From the NCBI GenBank assembly GCA_947305065.1, contig CAMZCT010000007.1, positions 542-64,541 of the forward strand: a stretch of DNA of 64,000 nucleotides, written 5' to 3'. The notes beneath the pieces were generated by a model. It made no database searches. It was not told where the DNA came from and worked only from the letters and a program-made list of their open reading frames with translations. Shown here one piece after another: positions 47,774-64,000 of this stretch; within the stretch, counting starts at the first letter, position 1, and the number at the start of each line of letters is the position of its first letter. This stretch comes from an uncultured Mycoplasmatota bacterium. Lineage in GTDB: Bacteria > Bacillota_I > Bacilli_A > RF39 > UBA660. The translations under genes and the position numbers were made by a program.

Positions 47774-47870
47774 ACTACCTGCCTCCACCTTTATAATAAC
47801 ATAGATTAGCAAAAAGTATTATTAAAACTAAATAATCATGATATAATCTTCATAATAGGAGATAATAAAT

Positions 47871-48362
47871 ATGAAACACTTTTTAACTGCTTTAAAACAT
47901 GTACTATTTTGTCAAATTATATGTTGGAGCATTTTTATGTTATTCGACGAAGAAATACCTTTTCTTCCCTTTTTCGGAGAACCAGACCTTGCATTAATAG
48001 TAGGAATTATAATACTAGTCATATACTTAATCCTTTACTATGCATACTTACCAAAAATAATTAAAAAGAAAGAATTATCATCATTAAAATATAATACATT
48101 TCTATTTATTATTTGGAATATAACTACAATTTTAATAGCATATGCTCTTATTACCCTAGTCGATAATAACCTTCTACACGTTTGCACTGGCGATGGATGG
48201 GCTTGCTTCCTAAACGGATTAGAATACTATATATATCCTATTATACAGGGTGGGTTATCAGCACTAATACTATTTATAAACTTAATAATAATAATCTATA
48301 AAGCAATAAAAAAAAGAATTACAGAAAGTAATTTTAAAAATCAAAATTATGCTCATGAATAA
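47871..48362 (+). CDS. Polytopic membrane protein
   Basis: Four hydrophobic helices. RBS AGGAGA. Confidence 0.5.
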   Translation: MKHFLTALKHVLFCQIICWSIFMLFDEEIPFLPFFGEPDLALIVGIIILVIYLILYYAYLPKIIKKKELSSLKYNTFLFIIWNITTILIAYALITLVDNNLLHVCTGDGWACFLNGLEYYIYPIIQGGLSALILFINLIIIIYKAIKKRITESNFKNQNYAHE

Positions 48363-48522
48363 TATCGAAATCAGCTTCTGGATAACATAAATATCCTTGA
48401 AAAATATGTTCAACATCAAAATCATCCCTAGCTATACATATCACCCCTTCTAATTCTGGTTCATAGTATTCTATAGGATAATCACTATGTGTCCCTACAC
48501 CCAGTTTATATTAGTTTTGCTT

Positions 48523-49035
48523 TCATTCATTTGGATCAACTACTTCTCTATCTTTAATATAACCTATGATTGAGCTTATAAATGCTATTATCATGAATAT
48601 TACACCCATAATAGACATAATTGATATATCATATCCAATCATTAATAAATTAACTGCAACTCCAAATAGTTTATATTTTTTAGTACTCTTTTGCCATAAT
48701 GCATACGTATAAATCATAGTTGCAGTAATGCTTAATAATGAAAAAATATTTTGATAACTAATTACACTTGCTATTAACATAATAATAAAAACTATAATTA
48801 AACTATTTTTACTTTTTGATTTATAAAACCATAAATTTCTTATAATTGAAATAACACACATAGCTATTCCTGTATATGCACCAAGCAACAAATAGGATAA
48901 TGCGCTTATAATAGTAGCAAGTATACCTATTTTTAGTATTTTAGACTTATCTTTTAAATTAAAAGTTGAAGTGTATATTAAATAATATATAATTACTAAT
49001 ATTTGCGAACATACATACCCTATTGATAAATTCAT
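48523..49035 (-). CDS. Polytopic membrane protein (170 aa)
   Basis: Five hydrophobic helices. Ends ..VVDPNE with a TGA stop. Its last ~45 bp are repeated at 49236-49282. Confidence 0.5.
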   Translation of the reverse strand: MNLSIGYVCSQILVIIYYLIYTSTFNLKDKSKILKIGILATIISALSYLLLGAYTGIAMCVISIIRNLWFYKSKSKNSLIIVFIIMLIASVISYQNIFSLLSITATMIYTYALWQKSTKKYKLFGVAVNLLMIGYDISIMSIMGVIFMIIAFISSIIGYIKDREVVDPNE

Positions 49036-49291
49036 AATTTCACCTTTTTTTATTTGGTCTTAACTATTCGTTCTCACCATGTCAGTTCCTAAGCAATTTT
49101 TACTTAAAAACATTCTATTTTAACTATTTTTTACCAATTTTAGCATATTTTTATGCAAAATATGCAAAATCTATTTTTTACTATTTCCTTATTTTATAAG
49201 GTTTTGGAGTTGGTCTTGACTAAATTGTTCTCAACCAGTTGATATTAGTTTTATTTTCATTATTCATTTGGATCAACTCCTTTTATAATTA

Positions 49292-49708
49292 CTAATCTCT
49301 AAAATCTTCTTTCCAATCTTTATTAAACATTACTATGCCATCTATAGTAAAGCCAAATTTATTATAGTATTTTTCTTTATCTAATTCAGTAGATACTATT
49401 CTTCTTCCAAAGCCTTCATATCTTTTACAAAAATCATTCATCATAATTTTTCCAAGTCCTTGTTTTTGATATTCAGGTTTAACCAATAAATATGTTATAA
49501 AAGCATTAATTGCCCCATCATCTATAGCTGATATTAATCCTACTAAATCATCTTTATTCCAAGCTGACATCACATATCAACTATTTTTAATAGCGTTATA
49601 TAATCTATTAGGATATTCTGCTGTCTTCCAACCAACAGAATCAAATAATTCTACAAGTTTATTTTTCCCTATTTCCTTTTCATATTTAAAAGTCAATTCT
49701 TTATTCAT
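49292..49708 (-). pseudogene. GNAT acetyltransferase interrupted by an in-frame TGA
   Basis: MNKELTFKYEKEIG..NAIKNS, then TGA at 49577-49579, then YVMSAWNKDDLVGL..VKPEYQKQGLGKIMM (acetyl-CoA motif). Confidence 0.65.
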
Positions 49709-50257
49709 TTATTTTATTCTCCTTTCTAATTCATATTTTAACAAACTTGCATTATCTGGTAAAAATGGACCAATTTCATCATCAGACATTAATCCATTAA
49801 AATAACATTCAATAGCTTTCTCTACTCCCGCATGACAAACTATTAAAATATTGTTATATTCTTTTGAAGTTATGTCATCTAAAAAGTCATATATTCTTTT
49901 GAAAAAATCTTGAACATTTTCTGCTTTTTCATATTTCATATTCTTTTGATATGACCAAAATTCGTTATAGTCAAATGATGATTTACTTGTTCCTTCAAAT
50001 TCTCCATAATTTCTTTCTCTTAATCTTTCATCAAAAATAATATAAAGACCTCTATCATCATTTATTATTTCAGCAGTTTGTTTAGCTCTTTTTAAAGGTG
50101 AGCAAAAAATTATATCAAACGCTAAGTCTCTTAGCATATCTGCAGTATCACTTGCTTGTGATAAACCATTTTCATTTAATTCTATATCCACTGAACCTTG
50201 CATTTTTTTCAGAACATTCCATTCAGTTTGTCCATGTCTTACAACAAATATATTCAT
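49709..50257 (-). CDS. Histidine phosphatase (phosphoglycerate-mutase-like) family protein
   Basis: MNIFVVRHGQTEWN catalytic RHG motif and a later CHAG histidine. Confidence 0.8.
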   Translation of the reverse strand: MNIFVVRHGQTEWNVLKKMQGSVDIELNENGLSQASDTADMLRDLAFDIIFCSPLKRAKQTAEIINDDRGLYIIFDERLRERNYGEFEGTSKSSFDYNEFWSYQKNMKYEKAENVQDFFKRIYDFLDDITSKEYNNILIVCHAGVEKAIECYFNGLMSDDEIGPFLPDNASLLKYELERRIK

Positions 50258-50673
50258 ATATTATACTTCCTCTCTATTGATATAAAATGCGTTTAAAAAG
50301 TGTCAGAGTGTTACAAGTCAGTATCCTAATTCCTCTCAAAAATGAGTATATTTTAGCCTAATTTTTTAATAGTTTCTTGTTTTTTTACTAAAACTTGCAA
50401 GATCTCATTTGCTAAAAAGTCCCATTTTATAAAGGTTAAAGCGATGTACAGTATAAATACAAGCCACCCACTGTTTGAATCGGATAATTAAAACATTTTA
50501 TTGAATATGAAACTCTGTTTTTTCAGATAAATAATTAGCAACTGTATTTAAAAAATCTCTAACAGTCATATAACATCCTCCATTTGATATACTAATACTA
50601 CTACGTATGAATACAAAGTCAAGTCATCTATTTATTTTTTTATATAATAAAAAAGATTGCTTCCACAATCTTT

Positions 50674-50988
50674 TTACATTTGTCTTTCACCAATCTTTTC
50701 ACTTTGATACATTTCCATGTATCTTAAGAAAGTACTATATGATGATGTCATACTTGGTATTCCAGTTGATTGCCATATACTCATCAAATTTTTTTCTTCT
50801 GAATTCTCTCGCTCTCCAGCTTCATATCTTTTCATATTCTTTAAAAAAGTCTCATATGGTAAAGCTTGAAAAGCGACTCCAGCAGAAGCCATATGCGCTT
50901 TCCACTTTTTTTCTTCCTCATTTAACTCTCAATCTCCAGCTTCATATCTTAGCATACATTCACAAAACAAATCATAATCAGTTTTCAT
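50674..50988 (-). pseudogene. Repeat-containing small gene with an in-frame TGA
   Basis: MKTDYDLFCECMLRYEAGD, then TGA at 50929-50931, then ELNEEEKKWKAH.. The internal motif (M/K)RYEAG(D/E) occurs twice and the DNA is repeated at 50806/50926. Confidence 0.4.
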
Positions 50989-51060
50989 TTTTATCAACTC
51001 CAATTGTATTATAACATACTATATCTATAATTAAAAATTCTTTATTCAAAAAAACGAAAA

Positions 51061-51240
51061 TTATCTATATACTTTCTTCAATATTTTAACATAATCATCT
51101 GGAAGTCCTAAAAAAGCCTCATCTATTTCCATTTCATCTAAATTATAAGTAGTATAAGTATTACCACCAGTTATTTTTTCAATCTCTTCTTCTAACAATC
51201 CAAACGAAGTAGAATATAAAGCAAATATATTATCTTTCAT
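51061..51240 (-). pseudogene. Diverged 5' fragment of holA fused to unrelated sequence
   Basis: IFALYSTSFGLLEEEIEKITGGNTYTTYNLDEMEIDEA aligns with the holA N-terminus VIFSTSYRLLEDEIKKIVKDNNYTSYNLDEVELDDV. It diverges after about 40 codons and stops at codon 60. Confidence 0.65.
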
Positions 51241-51314
51241 AAACCCACCAACTTACAATTACTTTAAAAATCCATAATAATTATACCATCTAAATAAAAA
51301 AACTATAAAAGTCA

Positions 51315-51848
51315 TTATTTAAGTACAAATGAGGAATCATAATCTTCTTGTTCTTCCAAAGCCAAAACATCTGTTAGAGCTTTAATATAATCTTCATAAT
51401 AACCTTTCATCTTAAGATTTATTAAAAATGATAAAGCAGAAAAATATGAAGAAATTTTTGCTTTAGTTTCAAACACAAGTAATGGTTCATCTACAGTTTC
51501 ATAAAGGCCTACAGAAGGAAATGGTATTCCAACCAACACTTTACCATCATCACTATACTCATAGTTCAATTGGAAAAAAGATTTAGAAAAGAATTCATTT
51601 CCTGTTACATAAGGAGCTCCGAAAAAATCAAAAAAGTCTAAAGCACGAAACAAATTTGTACTAATAATAACTTTTCTATACTCTTTAGGAATATTATATT
51701 TATCAAAATATGCTTCTACACCCTTATCATATTGCATCTCATAATCCTTAACAATATCATTAACAACAAGCGAATTTTCATTATAAGTAGCTAACCTTTT
51801 CTTCCCATGATTATAAACACTCTTTTTTATATCACTAGATTCAACCAA
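51315..51848 (-). CDS. Hypothetical protein (177 aa)
   Basis: ORF with a TTG start. An upstream ATG with a good RBS is separated from it by an in-frame TAA, so it may be damaged. Confidence 0.35.
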   Translation of the reverse strand: MVESSDIKKSVYNHGKKRLATYNENSLVVNDIVKDYEMQYDKGVEAYFDKYNIPKEYRKVIISTNLFRALDFFDFFGAPYVTGNEFFSKSFFQLNYEYSDDGKVLVGIPFPSVGLYETVDEPLLVFETKAKISSYFSALSFLINLKMKGYYEDYIKALTDVLALEEQEDYDSSFVLK

Positions 51849-52007
51849 ATAATAGAGAGATTAAAAACTCATAAAATCACCTCATTAAAAAGTATTCTAG
51901 CATAAAAAATATTATAATAAATCCCTAAAAGGTACAACTATTTGTCAATACATTATGTACGTAAAAGCAAAAATATATTATAATATAAAGAACGGAGGTG
52001 AAAAAGA

Positions 52008-52826
52008 ATGATATTAAGTTATAATACAATTAAAAAACTTACAGATAAAAACCTATTAATTGAAAATGCTAATGTTCAAAATATTCATTCCTCATCATAT
52101 GATGTCACCGCCGATAAATATATTTTAAAATTTAAAAAAAGTAAAAAGCCAATATCATTTATAGATGCTGAAGAATTAAATACCATGTACGAAGAAATAA
52201 ATATAACTACGGGATATACAATCAAACCAGGAGAAACTATTTTAGTAGTATTAGAAGATATATTTAATATTCCTAATAATATTTGTGGTTCAATAAGGGG
52301 TAGAACTTCCCTTAATAGACTTGGTTTAACAATAGCTACTCAGCATTTAAACCCTGGATTTAAAGGAAAGCTAAATTTAGTAGTAACTAACAATTCTATT
52401 AATTCCTACATTATTACCCCTAAAATTCAAATAGCTCAAGTACTATTTGAAAAACTAGATAGGAAAGTAAACAAAAAACAATTATATTCAAATAAAAAGA
52501 AATCAACATATCAAAACAAAGACGGCCGCCAAGGCTCAATGATTTACTCAGACTATATTGGAAAAGTAGTTAGACATTTTAAAGGCAATTACTATTTTAT
52601 AGAAGATATATGTATGGATTCTGAAACAAAAGAATACACAATTATCTACAAAAATCTATATAATCGTGAAGATTCTAATATATGGGCAAGACCAGCAAAA
52701 ATGTTTTTTGAAGAAATAGACGAAAATAGAGTTGATAATATAACCAAACAAAAGCATCGTTTTGAACTAGTCGATGATTTAACAATTGATTATACAAAAG
52801 AAAACAAACAAAAACTTGATAATTAA
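52008..52826 (+). CDS. dCTP deaminase / dUTPase-fold domain fused to a DUF1653-like domain
   Basis: N-half: SSSYDV, IKPGETILV, GRTSLNRLGL, NPGFKGKLNLVVTN, IAQVLFEKL (Dcd family). C-half: VRHFKGNYYFIEDICMDSETKEYTIIYKNLY..NIWARPAKMFFEEI (DUF1653 pattern). Own RBS and terminator. Confidence 0.75.
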   Translation: MILSYNTIKKLTDKNLLIENANVQNIHSSSYDVTADKYILKFKKSKKPISFIDAEELNTMYEEINITTGYTIKPGETILVVLEDIFNIPNNICGSIRGRTSLNRLGLTIATQHLNPGFKGKLNLVVTNNSINSYIITPKIQIAQVLFEKLDRKVNKKQLYSNKKKSTYQNKDGRQGSMIYSDYIGKVVRHFKGNYYFIEDICMDSETKEYTIIYKNLYNREDSNIWARPAKMFFEEIDENRVDNITKQKHRFELVDDLTIDYTKENKQKLDN

Positions 52827-52839
52827 ATCAAGTTTTTTT
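52815..52839 (+). terminator. Intrinsic terminator
   Basis: CTTGAT..ATCAAG hairpin plus T7. Confidence 0.6.
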
Positions 52840-52857
52840 GTTACTTCTCATATATTT

Positions 52858-53301
52858 TTACTTATATACTATTCTTAAATTAATCTTAAATTCTTTAAAT
52901 CCCAAACTCTTATATAAATTTAAAGAAGTTTTATTTTCTGCCATCACTCCAACATCAACAAAATAAATATCTCTATCTTTAACCATATTTAAAGATTCTT
53001 TCAAAAGTTTAGTAGCAATACCTCTATTTCTATATTCCTTTTCAACAAATAAGCCATCAATTAAATATCCATTAACATCATCATATACAACTTGCTTCAA
53101 AAAAACATATCCTACTACTAAATTATCCTCCTCATAACAAAGCAATATATTATTATCATCTTTTATTACATTTTTAAAATAATCTTTAACTATAAATTTT
53201 TCATCAATAAACTTATTATATTGTCTTTCATCTTGAATCAATTTAGTTAATAAACCATCACAAACTTCCGCTCTTTTATCATCAAAAACTCTAATTATCA
53301 T
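52858..53301 (-). CDS. GNAT family N-acetyltransferase
   Basis: LFVEKEYRNRGIATKLL acetyl-CoA-binding motif. ATG at 53301 behind GGTGATAGA. Confidence 0.8.
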   Translation of the reverse strand: MIIRVFDDKRAEVCDGLLTKLIQDERQYNKFIDEKFIVKDYFKNVIKDDNNILLCYEEDNLVVGYVFLKQVVYDDVNGYLIDGLFVEKEYRNRGIATKLLKESLNMVKDRDIYFVDVGVMAENKTSLNLYKSLGFKEFKINLRIVYK

Positions 53302-53510
53302 TCTATCACCAGCTATATTATACCAATTAGAAATCAATTAAGAAAGTAATAAAAAACAGTTTATAAAAATTAAAATATCAAAAAATAATTATGAAATTAA
53401 AAACAATCACACTACTCTAAAGAATTCTTATAATCATCATATAAAACATCTAATCAAGATTTTAAATCTGGAAAAGCAGAACAAATACTTATATATGAAG
53501 AGTCAATATA

Positions 53511-53995
53511 TTATTCATGATTCAAATCATATAATTGTCTACTAATTCTTTCTTTAAAAATGTCAATCAAATCATTCGGTTCATAATGATAATCATAATT
53601 AAACTCTTTACCACTACTTGTTTTACTTCCATGATGTCCTACTTTTAATACATCACTAGCAGGTAAATTATATTGATTCGTTATCTCTTTTTCTGTAGTA
53701 CTTGATGCATCTCCCATAAACATAAATTTATAACCATTTAGTTCTGTATAAATAACATTACTATTATCATTTTCGTTATCATATTCTTTGGTTTGTAAAA
53801 AATAGAGTTTGTTATTATCTATATTTAATTCTTTAATACATGAATAATATTTAATCTTCTTTTAATCCAATACTTTGATTAGTTCTTGCTCTAAGTCATT
53901 AAATTCACCACAATTAAATATTACTTTTTTACTTTAAAATTATTTACTAAGTTAATAGCTTCACCCATATGATCATAATCTCCATGTGGTGACAT
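53511..53995 (-). pseudogene. comEC: comEC 3'-end copy A (decayed and truncated)
   Basis: Begins MSPHGDYDHMGEAINLV. Has a frameshift near FKV(K)K and an in-frame TAA (VLD*KK). GDASSTTEKE..LKVGHHGSKTSSGKEF then diverges into unrelated sequence. Confidence 0.75.
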
Positions 53996-54014
53996 ACATT
54001 TATGCATACGGATT
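53993..54014 (-). repeat. Type-1 flank (AATCCGTATGCATAAATGYATG) abutting copy A
   Basis: The same 22 nt abuts copy B at 57254-57275. Sequence beyond it differs. Confidence 0.7.
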
Positions 54015-54149
54015 TTTATGTAAAAAAAAAACTATCTTTTTAGTTTTTTTCATTTATTTGAGTTAAATAGCCTTCTTTTGTAGATATATATCTATAGATT
54101 ATATCTTTATAGTTATTACACTCTTATCATCTACAACTACTCTCGTTTT

Positions 54150-54506
54150 TTAATGTGTCCTTGAAATAGAATATGATATAGTCTCATCTGACATATCTTT
54201 ATCAACATAGACAAGTGAAACTGTATCATCTGTAAAGCAATGCCACTCCATCACAGGAATGCCTCTAGTAGATGCTTGGCATTGTGCCTCTGTATCATTT
54301 TCAGTAGTAAATACTAATTCACAATCTTCATTTTCTTCAAATGCCATGTTATAACCGAATGGTGTATTTACATTATATTCTTTGATAGTAAAGCCATCTT
54401 TCCCCATCTTTTTTAGCACTTCATTTACTTTTTTTCTAAATTCCTCATTTCTTTCTCTTTCACCTGAAAACATTTCACTTCTCATGAACATAACAACTTT
54501 AGCCAT
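54150..54506 (-). CDS. Hypothetical protein (118 aa)
   Basis: ORF with RBS GGAGGT. A hairpin plus T-run lies at 54023-54050. Confidence 0.45.
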   Translation of the reverse strand: MAKVVMFMRSEMFSGERERNEEFRKKVNEVLKKMGKDGFTIKEYNVNTPFGYNMAFEENEDCELVFTTENDTEAQCQASTRGIPVMEWHCFTDDTVSLVYVDKDMSDETISYSISRTH

Positions 54507-54553
54507 ATCATAATACCTCCAAACTTATTATAACATATCTTTTAACATTTGTA

Positions 54554-55124
54554 TCACACAAATTCATATTCTCTAGCAATTATTCTATCATCAGAACAGT
54601 ATTTAATAACACATTCATTATCTTGTTTACAAATAATTATACCTACTGTATCATTCTCTTCTATAGTTTTAATATTCTTATCAATATAATTCATATAAGT
54701 CATAATTTGACCTGTGTGTTCTTTTTTTAATTCAGTTACTTTTAATTCAATTACTACATAACATTTATATTTAATATTATAAAGAAGTAAATCAATATAA
54801 TTATATCTATCATCTAATTTTATCTTATATTCATTACCAACATAATTTTGTACCCAATGGGTACAATTTTTCATCACTAAATATTTCATAAAATTTTCTC
54901 ATTTTATACAAATTACTTACTTTATATTTTTTACCAACTTCTAGGACTAATTTTTCTGAGTATTATTTAATAACATTTTCCCCATACTCTTTTCTAGCTT
55001 GACTCAAAAGTTTACCTATTTCGAAATAAACGCTAACTTTATGTCTGTCCTTTGAATAGTCTTTAGCCTTATCATATATTTCGCTTTTTATCAATTTTTC
55101 TTTTATCTCATTATAATAATTCAT
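54554..55124 (-). pseudogene. Decayed DUF1016/YhcG-type PD-(D/E)xK nuclease
   Basis: N-part MNYYNEIKEKL..YGENVIK, then TAA, then YSEKLVLEVGKKYKVSNLYKMRKFYEIF. Then a frameshift or internal deletion. C-part YIDLLLYNIKYKCYVVIELKV..GQIMTYMNYID..VGIIICK. Confidence 0.7.
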
Positions 55125-55343
55125 ATTAATACTTTAATCATCTTTTTTTCATTAATTCTTTCATATATACCTCCTTTAAATAATTAAAAAAGTATACCCC
55201 CTTAAAGGTATACCCGTATCATACATACTTCTATTTTGCCATTAGAAATATATGCTATCGACCTAATTGTCATATAAAAAGTTGGCAAATTATTTTATAC
55301 AATAATATTATATTAAAAAAGACTAGATAAAATCTAGTCCCTA

Positions 55344-56474
55344 TTATCTTTTAGTTCTTCCCTCACGATTAACATCAAATACTTCCGGTATAGCATTTCT
55401 AAAATCGTGTTTTTCGCTTCTATTATTTAATGCTGGTGGAATAACTTCATCAATCTTTTCCTTATTGTTTTCTTTGATTGCTTTCATAACTTCTAAAACA
55501 ATATCAGCAGCATAATCAGTAGAACACATATTTAAAATGTCAACAAGATCAGCATATAATTCTTCTTCTGATTTTAATGGATTTGCCGATTTTAGATAAC
55601 CCATTAATAATTCTGCTCTTTGAATAGAATTTAATACTGCACCATCCTGCTTTCTATCTCTTCCTCTATAAACATAATAACCACTATCAAGAATAAATGA
55701 ATTTAGTATAAAGTCATATAAACCTTTAGTATCTCTCGTTTTTTTTACAAATTCATCCATTTCTTTTTTATATTTTTTTGTTCTAAATAAATATATTATC
55801 TTTTCAATTAAAATTTTTGGTTTCCTAGCTGCTACAAGTTCTTCTATAATAGAGTCAACACTCTTTCCTCTACCTGTTTCTTCATTTATTTTACTTAAAG
55901 CAGAAAGAGTTTCATTGCTATCAGTAACTATATCTTCTAATATTTTATGATTTAAAACACAATTTTTATCATTTTCATCACTAAATTGTTTTATTGCTCT
56001 TGCAAGTTTTTCTTCAAATTCTCTTGGTTTTGCAAGAACAGAAATTTCTAACACTTTATCCAAGAAACTTTTTTCTTCATTTTTTAATATTGCAATTACG
56101 TTAGCAAAGAATCCGCCATCATTTAATTCTTCGCAAGAGTCAAGTAAGCAATTGCAAGTTTCCATTATTTCCTTAGTTACATAATAAGGATATGAAAGGA
56201 ATGTTCCATAATGTACGCCCTTAGCAGTATTATAGCTACCAATAAATCCTGTTGGAATAGCTGTAAAAGTTTCAATATTGATTCCTAAAAGGCCAAATAA
56301 ATAAGTAATTGCCGCAAAATTAATGATACTTTCCTTATCTGGTGTTAAAGTTGCTGTTGATAGTCCAAACAAATGATTTAAATCATCCATCTTACAGCCT
56401 CGATACTCTAATCTATAAATTCCTTGATTATCTCTTTTAAGGTCACATTCTTGTAATACTTTAAAAAACTCCAT
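55344..56474 (-). CDS. Hypothetical protein (376 aa), cassette cargo
   Basis: Intact ORF. Its start overlaps the stop of the 86-aa membrane ORF. No family recognised. Confidence 0.55.
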   Translation of the reverse strand: MEFFKVLQECDLKRDNQGIYRLEYRGCKMDDLNHLFGLSTATLTPDKESIINFAAITYLFGLLGINIETFTAIPTGFIGSYNTAKGVHYGTFLSYPYYVTKEIMETCNCLLDSCEELNDGGFFANVIAILKNEEKSFLDKVLEISVLAKPREFEEKLARAIKQFSDENDKNCVLNHKILEDIVTDSNETLSALSKINEETGRGKSVDSIIEELVAARKPKILIEKIIYLFRTKKYKKEMDEFVKKTRDTKGLYDFILNSFILDSGYYVYRGRDRKQDGAVLNSIQRAELLMGYLKSANPLKSEEELYADLVDILNMCSTDYAADIVLEVMKAIKENNKEKIDEVIPPALNNRSEKHDFRNAIPEVFDVNREGRTKR

Positions 56475-56721
56475 TTTCCCACCTCAGTTTTTTTATTATA
56501 ACATAATATTCTATTTCTTGTCTATCGCAGCTTGAACTTTTCACTACATCGAAAGAACATACCATTAATAATAATGCGAATATGTATAAAATAATATTAC
56601 TATTTGTAAATGCCATTAATATGAATAAACCACATCTAATTACTCTACCAATTGCTAAAAAGAATTCTAAGCTGACATAATATTCAACTTTGTATTCATT
56701 TTTTATTTTTTCATCATTCAT
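56461..56721 (-). CDS. Small two-TM membrane protein
   Basis: Two hydrophobic helices. An upstream ATG (MNFEDVKK..) is out of frame, so the N-terminus is possibly damaged. Confidence 0.4.
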   Translation of the reverse strand: MNDEKIKNEYKVEYYVSLEFFLAIGRVIRCGLFILMAFTNSNIILYIFALLLMVCSFDVVKSSSCDRQEIEYYVIIKKLRWENGVF

Positions 56722-56799
56722 ATCAAAGTGTTTACTTATAAATTCTTCAAAGTTTTTTTAACATCTTCAAAATTCATATTATCACCCATATAAATTATT

Positions 56800-57268
56800 A
56801 ATATATTGTCTTAATTATTAAAATATTATTTAATTTAAACATAATACTACTATTTATATCTGTTCTATATATTTTAGATTCTTTTTTTTAAATATCATCA
56901 GCTGTTTCACCATTATATAGTCCTTTGTATCCAGCATTATGAAATCTGGCTAAGTCTTTTACTCCGCTATTAACTGCCGTTTTATTTAAATTATAATTAC
57001 CTTTTCTAGCTTGATTTCTTCTATATAGTCTTTTCTCATCTTCAATATCCGTTTGTAAAAAATATAATTTATTTTTATCGATATTTAATTCTTTGATACA
57101 GGAATAATATTTTATTTTCTTTTTATCTAATACTTTAATTAGATCTTGTTCTAGATCATTATATGGTCCACAATTAAAGATTACATTCTCTACTTTAAAA
57201 TTATTAACTAAATTAATAGCTTCTCCCACATGGTCAAAGTCTCCATGTGGTGACATGCATTTATGCAT
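56800..57268 (-). pseudogene. comEC: comEC 3'-end copy B (chimeric)
   Basis: MHKCM-SPHGDFDHVGEAINLVNNFKVENVIFNCGPYNDLEQDLIKVLDKKKIKYYSCIKELNIDKNKLYFLQT, then ~53 unrelated codons and a stop at 56888. A degraded ..SKIYRTD..IMFK.. remnant of the gene end follows at ~56825-56885. Confidence 0.7.
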
Positions 57269-57275
57269 ACGGATT
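57254..57275 (-). repeat. Type-1 flank abutting copy B
   Basis: AATCCGTATGCATAAATGCATG immediately 5' of TCACCACATGGAG. Confidence 0.7.
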
Positions 57276-57307
57276 TGAGCAAAGAAAAAAGATTACATAA
57301 CGTAACC

Positions 57308-59023
57308 TTAATCTAATGTCTGATGTGCATTTTTAATATCAGCATTTGCCATTTCTAGTTGTCTTCTTTTATCTAAAAAGATATTTATTATCTCTTCTGG
57401 CTTTTCCACCGTATATCCTTGTTTTCTAGCATAATCAACCCAATATGGAGATTTTAATATTTTTTCAAATTCACTATCTAAAGTTTTTGTCACTATATCT
57501 ATACAATCTATTGCAGTTTTTGGAGCATTAACTGATATTTCATCAATATGGCTCATGATTCTTCCTAAATACGGAATCAATTTATCTCTATTGAAATGTT
57601 TTTCAAGTAACTCAGGTGCTACATCTATATAACCATTATTTATTGTATAAGCTAATTCTAGAATACTTTTTAATATTTTAGAATCATCATATCTACTTTC
57701 AAATAATTCTAAATTTTTTTCAATTTTTTCTACATTATTTAATAAACATTTTTGACAATCTACTACTACAATAGGAATATTAAAATCTTTTGCTGCTCTT
57801 AAACTTTCAAGCCAAATTTGATCACTACTAAAATCTTCCCTTGTTTTTAAATATACTATATAATCCGGATTAATCCTTTCTAACTTACCATTTATTACTC
57901 TTCTTCTAGAACGATAAACTTCATTATTCGTAAATCTTGTGTTATTTATTAAACTATCAGGTGTCCTAAATTCAACATCAGCAATTAATTTTTTTTGATG
58001 AAATGGATTTGTAATATTCAAATCTTTATATATTCCACCAGTGCCTAGATCATTTGATCCTAATAATGATAAATTATTTTCACCAAATTTTCCAAATCCA
58101 AATAAACAATGTTTTACATGTGTTTTTATACTGCTACTGCTAATAATGGAATTACACATATAATCAGTAGCAATCCTTGGACGATTCCATGCATCTTTAA
58201 AATTTTCAGGTGTTTCGTATTCTGTTGCCATACCATATGAATAAATACACATATAAAAATCTAATCCAGCATCATATATATTAATACCATCAACGTTATC
58301 AATTTGTTTTTCATTTGTTGGTGCATAAAATTTTTCATCATATATTTTTGAGTAAAAATTTCTAAGAATAGAATCTATATTAATTAAAAAACTTATATTC
58401 TCATACACAATTCTATCGCAGCCTTTGCCTTCAATAATATTTTTAATATCAAATAAAAAATCTTTTCCCTCTGATTCAGGTAAATTTTCTATATCCTTAC
58501 AATATCTCATATATAAATTATAAGCTTTATCGTATGACATTCCATATTTGTTTAACAATAATATATTTGGATCATTTGTTTCATTATTATTACTATTCTT
58601 GTTATCTCTAATTATTTGTAAATTATTTAGATCATCAACAGAATTAATATCAAAATAATTACCTCCACTACTAATTACAAATAATAAATTTTTTATTTGA
58701 GACTTGCTTAAGTCATTTTTACTAACATCATCTATTAAATTTGAAAATTGTTTATTTTTTAAAAAATGATAATAATTTGCACATAATGAAATCCAATCTT
58801 GATTTTCATTTTCAGCATAATTAATAATCTTTGATATATTTTTAATATTTTGTTCAGATAAGTTAATTATAATTTCTTGTGCTTCTTTATTTAAAGCAAA
58901 CGTTTCTAAAACATATAAAGGTAAATATTTTATGGTAATTTCATTTATAAAACCACTTATTAGTGTTTTCTCTGTTTCTTTGTTGCTGGTATATAAATAA
59001 TTTATTACACTATTAATATCCAT
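57308..59023 (-). CDS. Hypothetical protein (571 aa), cassette cargo
   Basis: Intact ORF starting 42 nt after the end of copy C. No family recognised. Confidence 0.6.
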   Translation of the reverse strand: MDINSVINYLYTSNKETEKTLISGFINEITIKYLPLYVLETFALNKEAQEIIINLSEQNIKNISKIINYAENENQDWISLCANYYHFLKNKQFSNLIDDVSKNDLSKSQIKNLLFVISSGGNYFDINSVDDLNNLQIIRDNKNSNNNETNDPNILLLNKYGMSYDKAYNLYMRYCKDIENLPESEGKDFLFDIKNIIEGKGCDRIVYENISFLINIDSILRNFYSKIYDEKFYAPTNEKQIDNVDGINIYDAGLDFYMCIYSYGMATEYETPENFKDAWNRPRIATDYMCNSIISSSSIKTHVKHCLFGFGKFGENNLSLLGSNDLGTGGIYKDLNITNPFHQKKLIADVEFRTPDSLINNTRFTNNEVYRSRRRVINGKLERINPDYIVYLKTREDFSSDQIWLESLRAAKDFNIPIVVVDCQKCLLNNVEKIEKNLELFESRYDDSKILKSILELAYTINNGYIDVAPELLEKHFNRDKLIPYLGRIMSHIDEISVNAPKTAIDCIDIVTKTLDSEFEKILKSPYWVDYARKQGYTVEKPEEIINIFLDKRRQLEMANADIKNAHQTLD

Positions 59024-59064
59024 TCTATCACATCCTATATTTATTATATCATGCTAATTTATAA

Positions 59065-59640
59065 TTAAGGCAAACAAGTTCCTATTTTCAACTTATTATC
59101 TTTAATCTTAAACATAATGCTTCCATCCTCGTCTGTTCTATATATTTTAGAATTATCTAAATTTTCTAATTCTTCTTTATTTGGATGACCATACCTATTA
59201 TTCTATCCAACACTAATAATTGAATATTTAGGATTAATTTCATTTATAAATTCTTTGCTGCTACTTGTTCTTGATCCATGACGGCCTACTTTTAACACAT
59301 CTATGTCTGGTAAATTATATTTAGAGAGTATTTCTTTTTCAGTAGTTGTAGATGCATCTCCCATAAACATAAATTTATAACCATTAATCTCTGTATAAAT
59401 AACATTACTATTATCATTTTCGTTAGCATATTCTCTTGTTTGTAAGAAATATAATTTATTCTTATCTATATTTAATTCTTTAATACATGAATAATATTTT
59501 ATCTTCTTTTTATCTAATACTTTAATTAGTTCTTTTTCCAAATCATTGTGAGGTCCACAATTAAAAATTACTTTTTCTACTTTGAAGTTTTCTACTAGAT
59601 TAATAGCTTCTCCCATATGATCAAAATCTCCATGTGGTGA
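59065..59640 (-). pseudogene. comEC: comEC 3'-end copy C (single in-frame TAG)
   Basis: SPHGDFDHMGEAINLVENF..FMFMGDASTTTEKE..LKVGRHGSRTSSSKEF..IISVG, then TAG, then NNRYGHPNKEE..SKIYRTDEDGSIMFKIKDNKLKIGTCLP and stop. Confidence 0.8.
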
Positions 59641-59661
59641 TTGTCAAAAAGTAAGTCGAAT
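59641..59661 (-). repeat. Type-2 flank (ATTCGACTTACTTTTTGACAA) abutting copy C
   Basis: Identical 21 nt precede copies D and E. It contains an in-frame TGA relative to the comEC frame. Confidence 0.75.
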
Positions 59662-59671
59662 AATTATCAAA

Positions 59672-59693
59672 TAAAAAGACTCATATAAGTCTC
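59672..59693 (-). terminator. Intrinsic terminator of the 401-aa cargo gene
   Basis: AGACT..AGTCT hairpin plus TTTTTATTT on the minus strand. Confidence 0.5.
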
Positions 59694-59694
59694 T

Positions 59695-60900
59695 TTATTT
59701 GATACTAGAAGCAGATTTTTCATTTTCATTAGAATCAAGCGTTGATATCTTATTGTCTGTTGTTTCACGTATTTTTTTCTTCATGGCCTGGTATAATTGA
59801 GTTGATAATTCTCCGTCATAATACATTTCTTCAAGTTTTTTATTAAATATTCCCTCTTGTTCTCTTAAATCAACAATAGAGTTAATATCTTCATTAAACA
59901 TAATCCCTGTATACATAATAATTTGATTAATCATTAGTGTAAGATAGATTCTTTGTATTTGTATTAACGACTCAATTCTCTTGTCAAATGAATTTGTATT
60001 TGCCTCATTGCCTAATGCACTTTGTTTTTCTGCAAAACTATTTCTTTTGTCAATCAAATTTTTTATATCATTTAATAAACATTTATCCAAATCCAAAAAA
60101 GTAAAATCTTTGATAGATTGCAATTTATTTAAATATTTAAGCTCATACATAGGCAATGATGAAGTATTGTTTTGATAATAATATGCCATCATCAATTTGA
60201 TACAATCACTACAATCAGATATTTTGAAAGTCTCCAAATTAATTTCATTCAAACCATCTTTTTTATATATTTCTTTGTAGACATCTAATTCATCCGACAT
60301 CATTCTCAACACCTGATTTTGTGGTAGCAACTCAATAAATTCTTCAAATTTTTTTAGTCTTTTTTTTCTTTCTTCTAATTCATCATTAATTTTTATTAGA
60401 ATTTCTTCTTGATTACTAAATTCTATTTCTTTTTTAGGATGTAATATGTCTTCACCAACTATAACTTTCTCAACTACATAATTACCTACTGGAATTCTTT
60501 CAGCTACCCATTCATCGCCCATAAATCCATTATTATAATGTCCCTCTAACGAACTTGTTATCCATGGTTTGTGAACATCTAATCCATCAGTTGATATTTT
60601 GTATACAATTCCAACAGCAGGAACAGCAATTTTTAAAGATCTTTCTCCGATTCGAACATTATTATTTAATGGAGTTCCATCATTCATACTGACTGCAGCA
60701 TATGCATTTGTTGCTACTTCTTTGTAATCACTCATATATACTCCGTATTCATTTCCATCACCAACTGTTTTTCTTCCTTGTTCATCATATTTTGGTGGAT
60801 TTGGAGGAGTTAAATCTATTCCATATATTTGTTTTTCTTTTAATATTTTTTCATTAACAATTACGCCTCTATACAAAAATTCTGGTTTTGCATTTTCCAT
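59695..60900 (-). CDS. Hypothetical protein (about 401 aa), cassette cargo
   Basis: Intact ORF. ATG at 60900 is preferred to the GTG at 60909. Globular N-domain (FLYRGV .. GVYMSDY .. GDEWVAE) plus a helical C-half. Confidence 0.6.
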   Translation of the reverse strand: MENAKPEFLYRGVIVNEKILKEKQIYGIDLTPPNPPKYDEQGRKTVGDGNEYGVYMSDYKEVATNAYAAVSMNDGTPLNNNVRIGERSLKIAVPAVGIVYKISTDGLDVHKPWITSSLEGHYNNGFMGDEWVAERIPVGNYVVEKVIVGEDILHPKKEIEFSNQEEILIKINDELEERKKRLKKFEEFIELLPQNQVLRMMSDELDVYKEIYKKDGLNEINLETFKISDCSDCIKLMMAYYYQNNTSSLPMYELKYLNKLQSIKDFTFLDLDKCLLNDIKNLIDKRNSFAEKQSALGNEANTNSFDKRIESLIQIQRIYLTLMINQIIMYTGIMFNEDINSIVDLREQEGIFNKKLEEMYYDGELSTQLYQAMKKKIRETTDNKISTLDSNENEKSASSIK

Positions 60901-60942
60901 TATTATCACATCCTAAAAATATTATATCAAACTAATTCTTAA

Positions 60943-61519
60943 TTATGGTGAACATGTTTCTATTTTTAATTTATTATTTTTAATTTTAATCATAATACTT
61001 CCATCTTGATCCGTTCTATAAATTTTACTATTTTTTAAAACATCTAATACTTCTTTATTTGGATGTCCATATCTATTATTTTTTCCAACACTAATAACAG
61101 AATATTTAGGCTTTATTTCATTAATAAACTCTTTACTACTACTTGTCTTAGATCCATGATGCCCAACTTTTAACACATCTATATTGGGTAAATTATACTT
61201 ATTTAAGATTTCTTTTTCAGTAATAGTTGATGCATCCTCCCATAAACATGAATTTATAACCATTTAATTCTGTATAAATCACATTGCTATTATCATTTTC
61301 ATTGTCATATTCTTTTGTCTGTAAAAAATATAATTTGTTATTATCTATATTTAATTCTTTAATACATGAATAATATGGTATCCTCTTTTTATCTAATACA
61401 TTGATTAATTCCTTTTCTAAATCATTATAAGGTCCACAATTAAAAATTATCTTTTCTACTTTAGAATTATTTACTAAATTAACTGCTTCTCCCATGTGGT
61501 CGTAGTCTCCATGTGGTGG
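60943..61519 (-). pseudogene. comEC: comEC 3'-end copy D (frameshifted)
   Basis: PPHGDYDHMGEAVNLV..GYKFMFMG, then a +1 insertion (GGAGGATGC versus GGAGATGC), then (D)ASTITEKE..LKVGHHGSKTSSSKEF..GKNNRYGHPNKEVL..YRTDQDGSIMIKIKNNKLKIETCSP. Confidence 0.8.
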
Positions 61520-61580
61520 TTGTCAAAAAGTAAGTCGAATTTAAAACACAAAAAAGAACTATCAATATTGATAATTCTTA
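61520..61580 (-). repeat. Type-2 flank plus conserved terminator hairpin abutting copy D
   Basis: AAGAATTATCAATATTGATAGTTCTT hairpin, T-run, then TTTAAATTCGACTTACTTTTTGACAA. Homologous to 63679-63738. Confidence 0.75.
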
Positions 61581-61740
61581 TTAAATCAAACTATCTTCAT
61601 CAATCAAAGGAACAATATCTATGGCTGGTTCTTCATACGGATGTACCATTCTTAATTCTTCAATTTTTCTATAGGAATAGTAATGAATATCTTAATCTTA
61701 TTTACATTAATACTCATTTTATCTCCTTTTAAAATTAAAT

Positions 61741-62271
61741 TTAATTTTTTCTATTAAGTATGCCGACTCTAACTAAAGCATCTTCAAGATACTCACCTTT
61801 TTGAATAATAATTTTTTCATTTGGTTGTTTCATAAATTCTTCAAAATCAGGCTCTATCTTAGTATCAACTCTTTTAATAAATTCATCATTTGCTCCTCTA
61901 TTTTTTGCACGTATTTTATAGTCTTCTTTACATGCAGGATCTGGATAAGCTAAGATAAAATCTATTCCATAGTTTCTCATCTCCTCAAATGGCATACAAG
62001 GTGCAATAAGAATTATGTCATGTTTTCCACTTTTCTCTTCTTCTAAAATAGCATCATAATAATTTTTTGGCCATTCAGGATTTATCGCTCTTACAGTTGA
62101 TTTTAAGCTTTCTTTATTTTTAACTGCTTTTTGTTCTTCAGTAAGAATATATTTGTAATCTCCACTAGCAAGTTCTGTAATATCATCATATTTAGTTGTT
62201 AAATATGTCTTTCCTGCACAGATCCATGCACTAATTATGATTGGTCTTTTATTAAACTTTGTATTGCTCAT
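61741..62271 (-). CDS. P-loop NTPase / nucleotide-kinase-like protein, cassette cargo
   Basis: Walker A AWICAGKT near the N-terminus. About 176 aa. RBS AAAGGAGA. Confidence 0.55.
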   Translation of the reverse strand: MSNTKFNKRPIIISAWICAGKTYLTTKYDDITELASGDYKYILTEEQKAVKNKESLKSTVRAINPEWPKNYYDAILEEEKSGKHDIILIAPCMPFEEMRNYGIDFILAYPDPACKEDYKIRAKNRGANDEFIKRVDTKIEPDFEEFMKQPNEKIIIQKGEYLEDALVRVGILNRKN

Positions 62272-62282
62272 ATTTTTCTCCT

Positions 62283-62777
62283 TTATTCAATAAAATCTAT
62301 TGGACTTACAATATTAATAAGTGGTAGTTTTTCTTGTGTTCCGAGCAATGTTGTCTCATTATCATCTACCATATATACTATATCATTATCTTTTATATAG
62401 TCTTTTATATACTCAGCTTTTAAATATTGTTTTTCAGCAATTACTTTAACATTATTTTCTCTACGAGGAATAATAATTACTTTATCTTTATCAATAAAAT
62501 AACAATAATCTTCGATCCATCTTAATTTATCTTCCTTTTGATAATTATAACTACAAAAACTAAGAATGTACGTTTTAGCTCCCTTGTCTTGGAGCCTTTT
62601 CATTATTTCAATAATTGTTTTAATTGGTCTTTTAGAATAGAAGAAACCTTCTTCTAATTTATGTTTCTTCTTATGCATTTCCATACTTGCACAGGTACCA
62701 TCCATATCCCAAAATATTTTTACTTCATTTTTTCCTTCTTCTAAATATTTGATAATTCTTTTTTCTATATCAGTCAT
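62283..62777 (-). CDS. HAD-superfamily hydrolase, 5'(3')-deoxyribonucleotidase-like
   Basis: Motif I IFWDMDGT and later MVDDN. Small cap-less size. Start uncertain (ATG 62777 or TTG 62795). Confidence 0.55.
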   Translation of the reverse strand: MTDIEKRIIKYLEEGKNEVKIFWDMDGTCASMEMHKKKHKLEEGFFYSKRPIKTIIEIMKRLQDKGAKTYILSFCSYNYQKEDKLRWIEDYCYFIDKDKVIIIPRRENNVKVIAEKQYLKAEYIKDYIKDNDIVYMVDDNETTLLGTQEKLPLINIVSPIDFIE

Positions 62778-63102
62778 ATAAATCGTCACAAACAAAGTAT
62801 ATCATTGATTATCTTCAATTACAATTAATTAATTATATTTTTCCTTTATATTCTTTACTAAATTCTACTAAAAGAACATTTATTTTTTTTGAACAATTCA
62901 ATATATTTCATGATAATCTACGTATTTGTTTTTTTAGTTAATCTAATATTTAATTTAATAAAATGATCATTATCATTTATTTTAACATCAGTTATTCCTT
63001 TTATACGCAATAAGAAATTTTTAAGTTCTATATTCGCAATATCATCTAGTTTAATTATCATAAAAAAATTTCACCTAATAGAATTTATAATGTTTGAGTT
63101 TT

Positions 63103-63678
63103 TTATGGACTACATGTTTCAATCTTTAATTCATTGTTTTTAATCTTAAACATGATACTACCATCTTAATCTGTTCTATATATTCTAGATTTTTCTAGAT
63201 TGTCTAATACTTCTTTATTTGGGTGACCATAACGATTTTTCTTTCCAACACTTATAATTGAATACTTTGGATTCATTTCGCCAATAAAATCTTTACTACT
63301 ACTTGTCTTAGAACCATGATGTCCTACTTTTAATACATCTATGTCTGGTAAATTATATTTACTTAGTATTTCTTTTTCAGTAGTAGTAGATGCATCACCC
63401 ATAAACATAAATTTATATCCATTTAGTTCTGTATAAATAACATTACTATTATCATTTTCGTTATCATATTCTTTTGTCTGTAAAAAATATAATTTGTTAT
63501 CATCTATATTTAATTCTTTAATACATGAATAATATGGTATCTTCTTTTTATCTAATACTCTTATTAATTCAGTTTCTAATTCGTTAATTTCTCCGCAATT
63601 AAATATTACTTTCTCTACTTTAAAATTATTAACTAAATTAATAGCTTCTCACATATGATTATAATCTCCATGTGGTGA
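63103..63678 (-). pseudogene. comEC: comEC 3'-end copy E (two in-frame stops)
   Basis: SPHGDYNHM, then TGA, then EAINLVNNFKVEKVIFNCGE..FMFMGDASTTTEKE..LKVGHHGSKTSSSKDF..GKKNRYGHPNKEVL..RIYRTD, then TAA, then DGSIMFKIKNNELKIETCSP. Confidence 0.8.
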
Positions 63679-63738
63679 TTGTCAAAAAGTAAGTCGAATT
63701 TAAGGCAAGAAAAAAGAACTATCGAATTGACAATTCTT
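63679..63738 (-). repeat. Type-2 flank plus conserved terminator hairpin abutting copy E
   Basis: AAGAATTGTCAATTCGATAGTTCTT hairpin, T-run, then CTTAAATTCGACTTACTTTTTGACAA. Confidence 0.75.
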
Positions 63739-63741
63739 AGA

Positions 63742-64000
63742 TTATTTTATTCTTTTTGTACTACTCCATTTTCTTGCACCATTTAAAATTTTTTCAGAAT
63801 CATTTAATAGTTTTGTTGGATATTTTACATATTCAAAAATATCATCATGAGAATAATTTTCTAACATATAATTTCCAATTGTGAATGCTATAGGGTAATT
63901 ATAAGGTAATGAATTAAAATCATTTATTTCTTCGTTAGTTGCATTTATCTCTACTTTTGTAAATTCTTCTGGATTTCCTAGGTTAGTAGCTAATGCTTCC
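63742..64000 (-). CDS. 3' end of a further cargo gene (5' part outside window)
   Basis: Open minus-strand frame from the window edge: ..NYPIAFTIGNYMLENYSHDDIFEYVKYPTKLLNDSEKILNGARKWSSTKRIK. TAA at 63742-63744, followed by the conserved hairpin. Confidence 0.55.
   Translation of the reverse strand, partial: EALATNLGNPEEFTKVEINATNEEINDFNSLPYNYPIAFTIGNYMLENYSHDDIFEYVKYPTKLLNDSEKILNGARKWSSTKRIK

Follow-up and report, generated by a model that had tools for sequence, protein, structure and literature searches.

What placed the same short sequences in front of five partial copies of comEC is the question raised by a 64,000-nucleotide stretch of DNA (hereafter the window) from an uncultured Mycoplasmatota bacterium (GTDB lineage RF39, UBA660; contig CAMZCT010000007.1, positions 542 to 64,541). 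The window holds five comEC 3' fragments (copies A to E), all on the minus strand, three behind a flank of one class (type 2, ATTCGACTTACTTTTTGACAA) and two behind a flank of another (type 1, AATCCGTATGCATAAATGYATG). As judged from their sequences and those of related loci, the flanks are very probably 26-nt element-side (P) arms of attachment sites for large serine recombinases (LSRs) that are carried by temperate phages. Each unit of the array consists of a comEC 3' end (R), which runs from residue 484 to the stop codon, between one and three cargo genes in the same orientation, a hairpin with a T-run, and a P arm. Such units, and others bounded by halves of the same sites, are referred to as cassettes, and the loci compared carry L numbers.

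The type-2 flank occurs as an exact match at 59641-59661, 61520-61540, and 63679-63699 on the minus strand, and the type-1 flank at 53993-54014 and 57254-57275; for both, shuffled sequences are expected to yield none. The positions and the division into two classes within the window, as given by the original prediction, therefore stand. All five flanks are directly followed by TCACCACATGGAGA, which in copy D takes the variant form CCACCA. In an alignment of the five copies, homology begins at this boundary and runs through the metallo-β-lactamase (MBL) domain of comEC (Pfam Lactamase_B). Copies D and E share ~40 nt of extra homology, through a hairpin (AAGAATTATCAATATTGATAGTTCTT / AAGAATTGTCAATTCGATAGTTCTT) and a T-run, and the genes upstream of these two hairpins were correctly described as unrelated, being assigned to different cargo clusters. 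All five fragments are pseudogenes, disrupted by stops, frameshifts, or a fusion.

The boundary can be dissected by reference to an intact comEC, 5 kb outside the window. This 672-aa gene is found in L001, a contig of the same sequence that extends 8.3 kb past the window end and also contains comEA and more cassettes and fragments. Intact comEC reads ATT ACT CAT GGG GAC at the boundary, so the homology between fragment and gene starts at CATGG, and TCACCA belongs to the element rather than to comEC. The shared TCACCACATGG boundary is common to all five copies, as had been noted, but it is a composite of the inner P-arm end TCACCA, the crossover dinucleotide CA, and the first comEC bases TGG. 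The accompanying claim that both flanks break the comEC frame holds for one class only: type 2 places a TGA two codons before S-P-H-G-D, whereas type 1 adds in-frame ATGs and no stop (open reading frame [ORF] MHKCMSPHGD...), and the homology merely ends there.

The identification of the arms comes from a scan of viral contigs, two of which contain the type-2 flank. In L083, the flank plus TCACCACATGGAG runs on into GTATGTGGTTAGTAAGTCGAA, and the whole constitutes a 54-bp phage site (attP) of the form TTCGACTTACT TTTTGACAATCACCA CA TGGAGGTATGTGGTT AGTAAGTCGAA, that is, 26+2+26, with 11-nt outer inverted repeats (TTCGACTTACT / AGTAAGTCGAA) equidistant from the CA. A 473-aa LSR gene (L083 3540-4961), the product of which matches the Resolvase (1e-32), Recombinase (1.6e-6), and Zn_ribbon_recom (2.5e-7) domains, ends directly against attP, and a CI-like repressor lies next to it. 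The reciprocal junction, in which the comEC 5' part is joined to the other phage arm (P') as ...ATAACT CA TGGAGGTATGTGG... (type-2 attL), is present in L084, L096, and L106. That the type-2 flank is half of an attP adjoining an LSR gene, and that the reciprocal attL occurs in lysogens, bears out the proposal that the flanks are att-like element ends rather than coding leftovers. By sequence, these loci combine what is expected of LSR sites, namely a recombinase adjoining attP, inverted half-sites spanning ~50 bp, and hybrid attL and attR junctions with what appears to be a 2-bp crossover. The adjoining LSR gene is found in viral contigs and lysogens only, and not in the window. The LSR is <37% identical to any integrase among 50,697 deposited phage records, and the 54-bp attP has no match in deposited phages; a search of deposited plasmids with the copy-C junction (P arm and neighboring comEC) returned one chance-level match only.

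In the favored model, the integrase acts on a full site composed of an 11-nt outer motif, 15 nt, CA, 15 nt, and the inverted outer motif. Recombination of attP with comEC yields attL (comEC 5'-CA-P') and attR (P arm-CA-comEC 3'), and each flank-plus-fragment in the window represents an attR-type junction. Types 1 and 2 are the P arms of two integrase lineages, with outer motifs that co-vary with their own P' arms.

Alternatively, the type-2 flank could be conserved mainly as a promoter, with TTGACA 16 nt upstream of TATGAT or TATAAT in the D-Y-D-H codons, which would restore transcription, past the upstream terminator, of the displaced fragment and the cargo behind it. The copy-E junction does carry a perfect sigma-70 consensus (TTGACA, 16 nt, TATAAT; window 63658-63685, minus strand), the sole 12-of-12 match in 11 kb, with its -35 element from the P arm and its -10 element from mutated D-Y-N-H codons, and nearly all type-2 arms retain TTGACA. 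The -10 element, however, depends on synonymous codons and is poor in copies C (TTTGAT) and D (TACGAC) and in many loci, and arm types 1 and 5 lack a -35-like hexamer at that spacing. TTGACA is already present in the phage attP, with no -10 element after it, and promoter-like matches are not above those in shuffled sequence (100 versus 95.6). A role mainly as a promoter is therefore hardly credible.

The crossover point, as read from the junctions, is the CA with which the His codon of the HGDxDH motif begins, at comEC residue 484. It is placed there because of L105 and L089, each of which has an integrase-less cassette with both junctions visible, and because of the exact 26/26 symmetry of attP. 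At L105, a non-MBL site, the two junctions of an esterase-like cassette read ...CCTATTTTA CA TGGAGGT... and ...AAAATTGG CA AAGCGATA..., such that the cassette ends are ...TTTTA-CA-TGGAGGT and ...AAATTGG-CA-AAGCG. At L089, inside a different MBL gene, attR retains the host-type CAC GGC CAT. GA and AG were considered as crossover dinucleotides and set aside, since the same junctions and the 26+2+26 symmetry favor CA. The same LSR phage and a P'-type cassette also occur in other short MBL-fold genes (L114, L115, and L089), at the equivalent (L)ITHG / SHGHYDH motif. From these sequences, the true target seems to be MBL motif 2 at the level of its coding sequence, rather than comEC in particular.

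A second junction in comEC lies near residue 622 (GKNNRYGHP). It is found just past the window end (L001 6834-6858) and in L004, L012, L029, L039, L047, L065 (five copies), L068, and L076. Its arm, ACATATGTACT followed by AACTACTCAATACCA, then GT and TGGnAArAAyAAy, has the 11+15 geometry and the ACCA-nn-TGG inner motif of the HGD site, and in composite forms a full 54-bp first-site junction stands immediately before it. The residue-622 arm had no match in the viral contigs; a TACTAAC string within it, which resembles the yeast branch point, was treated as coincidence. The count of two flank kinds thus holds for the window, but across loci there are at least five arm types at the first site, plus the second target site.

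The other flank class leads to a second integrase, P0003, which is 73% identical to the type-2 phage LSR. Its attP (L116) reads hairpin-TTTT-ATGTATGTGCATAAAAATAAATCACCA-CA-TGGACATTGAGTGTTATGCACACGAT, with the arms partitioned as ATGTATGTGCAT AAAAATAAATCACCA CA TGGACATTGAGTGTT ATGCACACGAT. Its attL is found in L108-L113, and its attR in L122, where the arm is joined to a divergent native comEC 3' end. The type-1 and P0003 arms have TGCATAAA..TA..TCACCA and the 11+15 geometry in common, and the inverted partner predicted for type 1, ATGCATATGAA, occurs 15 nt after the CA in L033 and L056; a gapped scan of the viral contigs for this partner found none. On this comparison, the type-1 flank appears to be a relative of the P0003 phage P arm, and the two classes appear to stem from related serine-integrase lineages. 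The link of type 1 to phages is drawn through this related arm, not the exact arm; with attP, attL, and attR all found for the second lineage, it agrees with the original prediction of two related element lineages using one target.

In eight lysogen loci (L106-L113), a truncated comEC of 480-513 aa lies directly against the LSR gene, and comEA comes next. Six of the eight have an identical P0003 integrase, and the neighboring genes of their hosts differ. On the attR side of the lysogens, P0123 was the sole marker to reach the junction (L122), and a 76-aa P-side protein matched once, on a 611-nt contig. The lysin homolog P0161 was rejected as an attR-side marker, as its phages use a tyrosine integrase at other sites. 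An RVT_1 reverse-transcriptase gene lies upstream of the tail-fibre/holin/lysin block in L116 (10156-11214), L122 (7755-8813), and L117-L121 (~7874-8944); it also occurs in relatives with a tyrosine integrase and may be a diversity-generating or retron-type module. Separately, L033 (12214-12270) and L056 (13008-13063) contain a type-2 P arm joined to a type-1-like P' arm (...CA TGGAGACATTGATTT ATGCATATGAA). These hybrid junctions imply exchange between sites of different integrase lineages.

The hairpin next to the arms requires separate consideration, since it had been put forward as a possible end structure for recombination. The extended homology of ~40 nt in copies D and E was confirmed, but a hairpin and T-run precede all five flanks, not just these two. 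Across the related loci described below, 57 of 58 arms have a hairpin and T-run no more than 70 nt away (modal gap, 13-14 nt), compared with 27.5% of random windows. A hairpin stands just upstream of one of the two phage attP sites examined (L116, not L083). The D/E hairpin family accompanies type-1, type-2, and second-site arms and is found at cassette ends in many loci, with look-alikes off the arms too. The limits of the 54-bp site, set by the ends of homology in L022, L083, and metagenome loci, do not include the hairpin. Most plausibly it is an intrinsic terminator that ends the last cargo gene and forms part of a conserved 3' module outside the recombination site. A consensus terminator scan does not pick up the D and E hairpins, since it requires three G-C pairs, and Rfam found nothing at threshold in 53000-64000.

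The proposed end-hairpin function is not supported and probably incorrect: the hairpin is outside the symmetric site, its sequence is variable, its T-run follows co-oriented cargo, and it has look-alikes elsewhere in these AT-rich genomes. A more specific form of the idea, in which hairpin and flank form a folded single-strand site recognized by structure, as attC is in integrons, would account for the presence of a hairpin before nearly every arm, at a favored spacing, and for the variation of its sequence under a constant structure. Against it, no integron-type tyrosine recombinase lies near any array, including around comEC in L001, and the ends are halves of an inverted-repeat, double-strand 54-bp site from which the hairpin is excluded; the L083 attP has no such hairpin. 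With the T-run placed after a co-oriented gene and similar hairpins off-arm, an attC-like site is extremely improbable.

To place the array in a wider context, relatives were collected by a protein-guided scan with one genome per species. It found at least 495, and 79 loci were retained; the source is in every case an uncultured gut or rumen member of the Bacilli. The 58 arms of type 2 (36) and type 1 (22) are distributed over 42 of 80 genome loci, invariably downstream of comEC and oriented alike. No comEC copy on the minus strand relative to comEC was found in the related loci. With arms beside comEC in so many genomes and in constant orientation, the view that the flanks are ordinary intergenic sequence fails. 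About 48 fragments begin at residue 484, and their upstream flanks are the two classes and rarer ones. ComEC proteins of the relatives are 26-36% identical to that of this genome over the first 480 residues and 83-91% identical in R. At the nucleotide level, mean pairwise identity among 72 intact comEC genes rises from 0.46-0.59 upstream to 0.76-0.90 from the boundary on. In several arrays, distal fragments are much more divergent (38-70% identity), and in L025 such a fragment is directly followed by the conserved downstream gene, which fits native comEC 3' ends that may have been displaced by incoming R copies. More generally, R, the last 189 codons of comEC, is by these comparisons a segment that behaves as a mobile module.

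The same data bear on the proposal that the repeats owe their origin and spread solely to duplication or homologous recombination in the comEC 3' region, as at a hotspot with core genes on either side, and that the flanks are hitch-hiking intergenic sequence. R copies of 570 bp at 76-90% identity would suit RecA, and the array, which sits between two conserved genes, is bounded by comEC and a holA-like gene. However, the identity step in the 72 genomes is sharp at the CA, with no gradient; fragment start points do not vary, and divergent native fragments (38-58% amino acid identity), for which an exchange driven by homology is implausible, are joined to arms at the identical base. The arms, moreover, each make up one half of a symmetric site that adjoins an LSR gene. 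We consider homologous recombination as the sole cause very unlikely. Two further ideas about the repeats were discarded: the start of R does not mimic the P' arm, to which it has no similarity, and YhcG as a homing nuclease driving co-conversion would leave the P arms unexplained.

The cargo begins 10-40 nt after the R stop codon, with a ribosome-binding site. The related loci yielded 119 cargo ORFs of ≥80 aa in 68 clusters, 110 of them co-oriented with comEC. YhcG/DUF1016 nucleases (19 loci) and Bro-N proteins (12 loci) are the commonest, and the remainder are mostly singletons (Fic, NUDIX-NrtR, MFS, transglutaminase/LRR, and radical-SAM proteins). PADLOC gave a sole match in the cargo, to a YhcG remnant, as a candidate family. 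Domain scans of the 119 ORFs and the window found no recombinase domain in the cargo proteins, and a search for LSR homologs in the window and L001-L081 found none, apart from one weak match in L078 (25% identity, another resolvase). Each unit begins at the CA, ends in a P arm, and is without a recombinase, as in integrase-less elements of the kind built up by accretion. Replacement of a gene's 3' end, as known for icd, also describes the cassettes, in which an intact comEC is followed by cassettes (L001), identity steps up, and native ends are displaced; it does not describe the integrase-bearing phages, which have no comEC 3' copy.

Cassettes of a second kind were found through the P' arm. 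A metagenome scan with a P' 19-mer recovered 21 loci, in which the sequence to the left of P' is a comEC 5' part, a P arm of one of at least five types in comEC arrays (forming a complete attP-like site, as also in L022), or another target, and the sequence to the right belongs to at least four unrelated families. The variable right side indicates that there are cassettes that begin with P' instead of R. In L090, comEC is followed by a YhcG gene, a 147-aa ORF, a hairpin, and P-CA-P'; then by a promoter, an esterase-like gene, a hairpin, and again P-CA-P'; and finally by a helix-turn-helix (HTH) gene, a hairpin, and a P-CA-R fragment. The esterase-like cassette (0.95 kb, P' to P arm) occurs both in this comEC array and at the unrelated site L105, and such units are therefore mobile without an integrase of their own. 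One family of P'-cassette starts has a palindrome, AGTATTCG(N16)CGAATACT, immediately following the P' arm and preceding an XRE-type HTH gene (L090 6601-6640, L085, L088, L092, L095, L097, and L100); it looks like an operator.

These features can be weighed against a model in which each unit is what decay has left of the right end of its own full-length prophage; the prophages would have integrated successively and been almost wholly deleted, leaving an immobile array. The flanks are indeed genuine phage P arms, the attP in L116 also has a hairpin before its P arm, the window fragments are all pseudogenes, and internal deletions are visible (the copy B-Bro-N fusion and the YhcG pieces). In contrast, the phages found have no comEC 3' copy, and prophage deletion could not recreate an intact comEC plus cargo; no viral contig was seen to encode a relative of the comEC 3' end, although there are only three or four contigs of these phages and the search has low power. 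The 119 cargo ORFs include no phage gene remnants and no integrase or repressor fragments, and the architecture (R stop, ribosome-binding site and cargo, terminator, arm) is uniform over dozens of species. Together with the presence of one P'-to-P cassette at two unrelated sites, this makes an array of prophage remnants improbable.

By their canonical rules, serine integrases recombine only attP with attB, or attL with attR when a directionality factor is present (PMC3783163, PMC5499577). In the accretion and cis-mobilization scheme of cis-mobilizable elements (CIMEs), a related functional element moves integrase-less elements by use of alternative att sites (PMC5704250). Within these rules, the cassettes most likely ride on phage integrases, and on the particular route of their movement we are evenly divided. 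A phage could integrate beside an existing cassette, and excision using the distal or the proximal attR would then pick the cassette up or deposit it. Alternatively, a cassette circle with an attR-type site could recombine with a chromosomal attL, which would need the integrase and its directionality factor. Each new R would join the resident comEC 5' part, such that the gene stays whole, while the previous 3' end would be pushed downstream and decay. P-CA-R junctions would be products of attP and attB, and P-CA-P' behind an R cassette would be the residue of an exchange of attL and attR with a cassette circle.

Several observations weigh against phage integrases as the movers of the cassettes. 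There is no phage in the window, and no integrase there or in most arrays, so the enzyme is linked to the cassettes by site identity only. An exact scan of the viral contigs found no type-1 arm, only the relative. A phage-plus-cassette intermediate is unobserved in viral contigs, of which only a few come from such phages, and none of the lysogens found has a cassette beside it. The L089 attL has TA where CA is expected, and two P'-type cassettes in a row (L090) are poorly explained by strict LSR pairing. Finally, homologous recombination among the 570-bp R repeats can reshuffle arrays and blurs the history of events. Exchange of this kind is sure to add deletions and rearrangements, of which the fusion of copy B to Bro-N is an example.

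A tentative extension, which we consider less likely than not, is that phage serine integrases drive a gene-cassette system in which cassettes without an integrase occur in two polarities. If so, attP-type cassettes (P' arm, promoter, one gene, terminator, P arm) would insert at the HGD codon and split comEC, and attR-type cassettes with a spare comEC 3' end would recombine with attL, repair comEC, and leave a complete attP, as in L022 and L090. Repeated cycles would build arrays, carry cargo across species, and overwrite the 3' third of comEC clade-wide, and competence would be switchable.

The features of the array in the window are collected in Table 1.

Table 1. Features of the comEC fragment array, listed in the direction of comEC transcription (window positions)
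Feature	Position	Strand	Basis or remark
Hairpin and T-run (AAGAATTGTCAATTCGATAGTTCTT TTTT), ends the cargo gene upstream of copy E	63714-63738	minus	-9.8 kcal/mol; read as intrinsic terminator
Type-2 P arm, copy E, 26 nt, TTCGACTTACT then TTTTGACAATCACCA	63673-63698	minus	Identical to left half of L083 attP
CA, inferred crossover dinucleotide, copy E (positions 1-2 of the HGD His codon)	63671-63672	minus	L105/L089 att pairs, attP symmetry
Displaced comEC 3' fragment E (residues 484-672), pseudogene, two in-frame stops	63103-63670	minus	Copy alignment
Cargo after fragment E: 47-aa ORF, 164/170-aa NT5C/HAD-like, 176-aa unknown protein; no recombinase	61741-63061	minus	
Hairpin and T-run (AAGAATTATCAATATTGATAGTTCTT) upstream of copy D	61554-61579	minus	-10.1 kcal/mol; same hairpin before complete attP in L022
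Type-2 P arm, copy D, inner end CCACCA	61514-61539	minus	
CA and displaced comEC 3' fragment D, frameshifted	60943-61513	minus	
Cargo: 404-aa protein, no Pfam or PADLOC match	59695-60909	minus	
Hairpin and T-run upstream of copy C	59675-59696	minus	-19.9 kcal/mol
Type-2 P arm, copy C	59635-59660	minus	
CA and displaced comEC 3' fragment C, one in-frame stop	59065-59634	minus	
Cargo: 571-aa protein, no family match; homolog is cargo in L065 array	57308-59023	minus	
Hairpin and T-run upstream of copy B	57289-57309	minus	Folding
Type-1 P arm, copy B, 26 nt, TCCGTATGCAT then AAATGCATGTCACCA	57248-57273	minus	11+15 geometry as type 2; related to P0003-type P arm
CA and comEC fragment B, truncated after ~210 nt, deletion-fused to C-terminal remnant of Bro-N-type cargo	56888-57247	minus	
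Cargo and remnants: 86-aa and 376-aa unknown; YhcG/DUF1016 PD-(D/E)XK nuclease (two pieces); 118-aa unknown	54150-56721	minus	
Weak A/T hairpin and T-run upstream of copy A	54025-54050	minus	-7.2 kcal/mol
Type-1 P arm, copy A	53987-54012	minus	
CA and comEC fragment A, frameshifted, 3' end diverged	53601-53986	minus	

Decay by internal deletion is apparent at 56888-57030 (minus strand), where fragment B is joined in frame to the C-terminal part of a Bro-N/DinD-like gene, an intact relative of which lies at L001 7021-7842. The YhcG nuclease gene survives as two pieces at 54554-55124 (minus strand). Past fragment A, the accessory region may extend further (window 47812-53337); it holds a dCTP-deaminase-like/DUF1653 fusion (52008-52826) and a GNAT acetyltransferase (52858-53337) that has homologs downstream of comEC in six other loci. 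A conserved chromosomal downstream gene, copies of which are ~30-39% identical in 12 loci, lies 5.8 kb further on (46826-47812).

Cassette traffic at one codon would account for the 80-90% DNA identity of the final 570 nt of comEC among dozens of species in which the rest of the gene is only ~50% identical, and for the downstream pseudo-copies, and the resulting comEC mosaic would mislead gene trees and annotation. It would also tie phage lysogeny to natural transformation, as phages and some cassettes split the gene for the DNA-uptake channel and others restore it. The arrays further suggest that accessory genes (YhcG, Bro-N, Fic, NUDIX, and unknowns) may spread in uncultured gut and rumen Bacilli without a recombinase per element. 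At least two serine integrases now have sites placed at base level (54-bp attP, CA crossover, attB in the MBL motif), and enzyme-site pairs of this kind are sought as genome-engineering reagents.

Among known systems, the closest in target is Phi1207.3 (Tn1207.3, Phi10394.4), a prophage of Streptococcus pyogenes with serine recombinases, which integrates within the comEC coding sequence at a defined dinucleotide, GA (PMC4260502), as does Tn1207.1 in pneumococcal celB. It has three resolvase-type genes and disrupts comEC, with no cassette arrays or replacement 3' ends reported. The integrases resemble those of phiC31, Bxb1, A118 (Listeria comK), and SPbeta in their Resolvase/Recombinase/zinc-ribbon composition, ~50-bp attP with inverted half-sites, 2-bp crossover, and lysogens with hybrid attL and attR that split the host gene (PMC3783163, PMC5499577). 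Unlike in those phages, the att halves here also bound integrase-less cassettes, and several P-arm types are joined to one P' arm in chromosomal arrays, which is hard to explain under strict pairing. CIMEs related to ICESt1/ICESt3 at the 3' end of fda are likewise integrase-less, att-bounded elements stacked at a gene end and mobilizable by a related element (PMC5704250), but they involve tyrosine recombinases, conjugative elements, and short att repeats, instead of serine-integrase phages and a 570-bp 3'-end replacement. Integron cassette arrays and tycheposon cargo arrays (for the latter, 10.1101/2020.12.28.424599) share small single-gene or promoter-poor cargo units that end in a recombination site and lie in one orientation at a fixed place in the genome, with the recombinase encoded elsewhere. 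Integrons, however, use a tyrosine recombinase and a folded attC, and tycheposons use tyrosine recombinases and tRNA targets, none of which applies here.

At the 3' end of rlmH, the staphylococcal cassette chromosome mec (SCCmec) and ccr-less pseudo-SCC islands form tandem stacks of LSR-dependent and recombinase-less relatives, the newest next to the gene. The tandem stacking at one site in a conserved gene is similar, but SCC elements carry the recombinase themselves and have a direct repeat of ~15-18 bp, whereas the target gene here is another, the repeat is 570 bp, and the recombinase resides on phages. Phage 21 and e14 in icd bring a substitute 3' end, such that the gene is kept intact and the old end persists as a pseudo-fragment; there the integrase-bearing phage carries the substitute end, and here only small cassettes do. 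In this light, the flanks themselves are ordinary serine-integrase att arms, and what is unusual is their setting, in which cassettes without an integrase are bounded by phage att sites and stacked in comEC. Many of these cassettes contain what appears from the sequence comparisons to be a portable 3' third of comEC, a segment that has spread through the whole clade.

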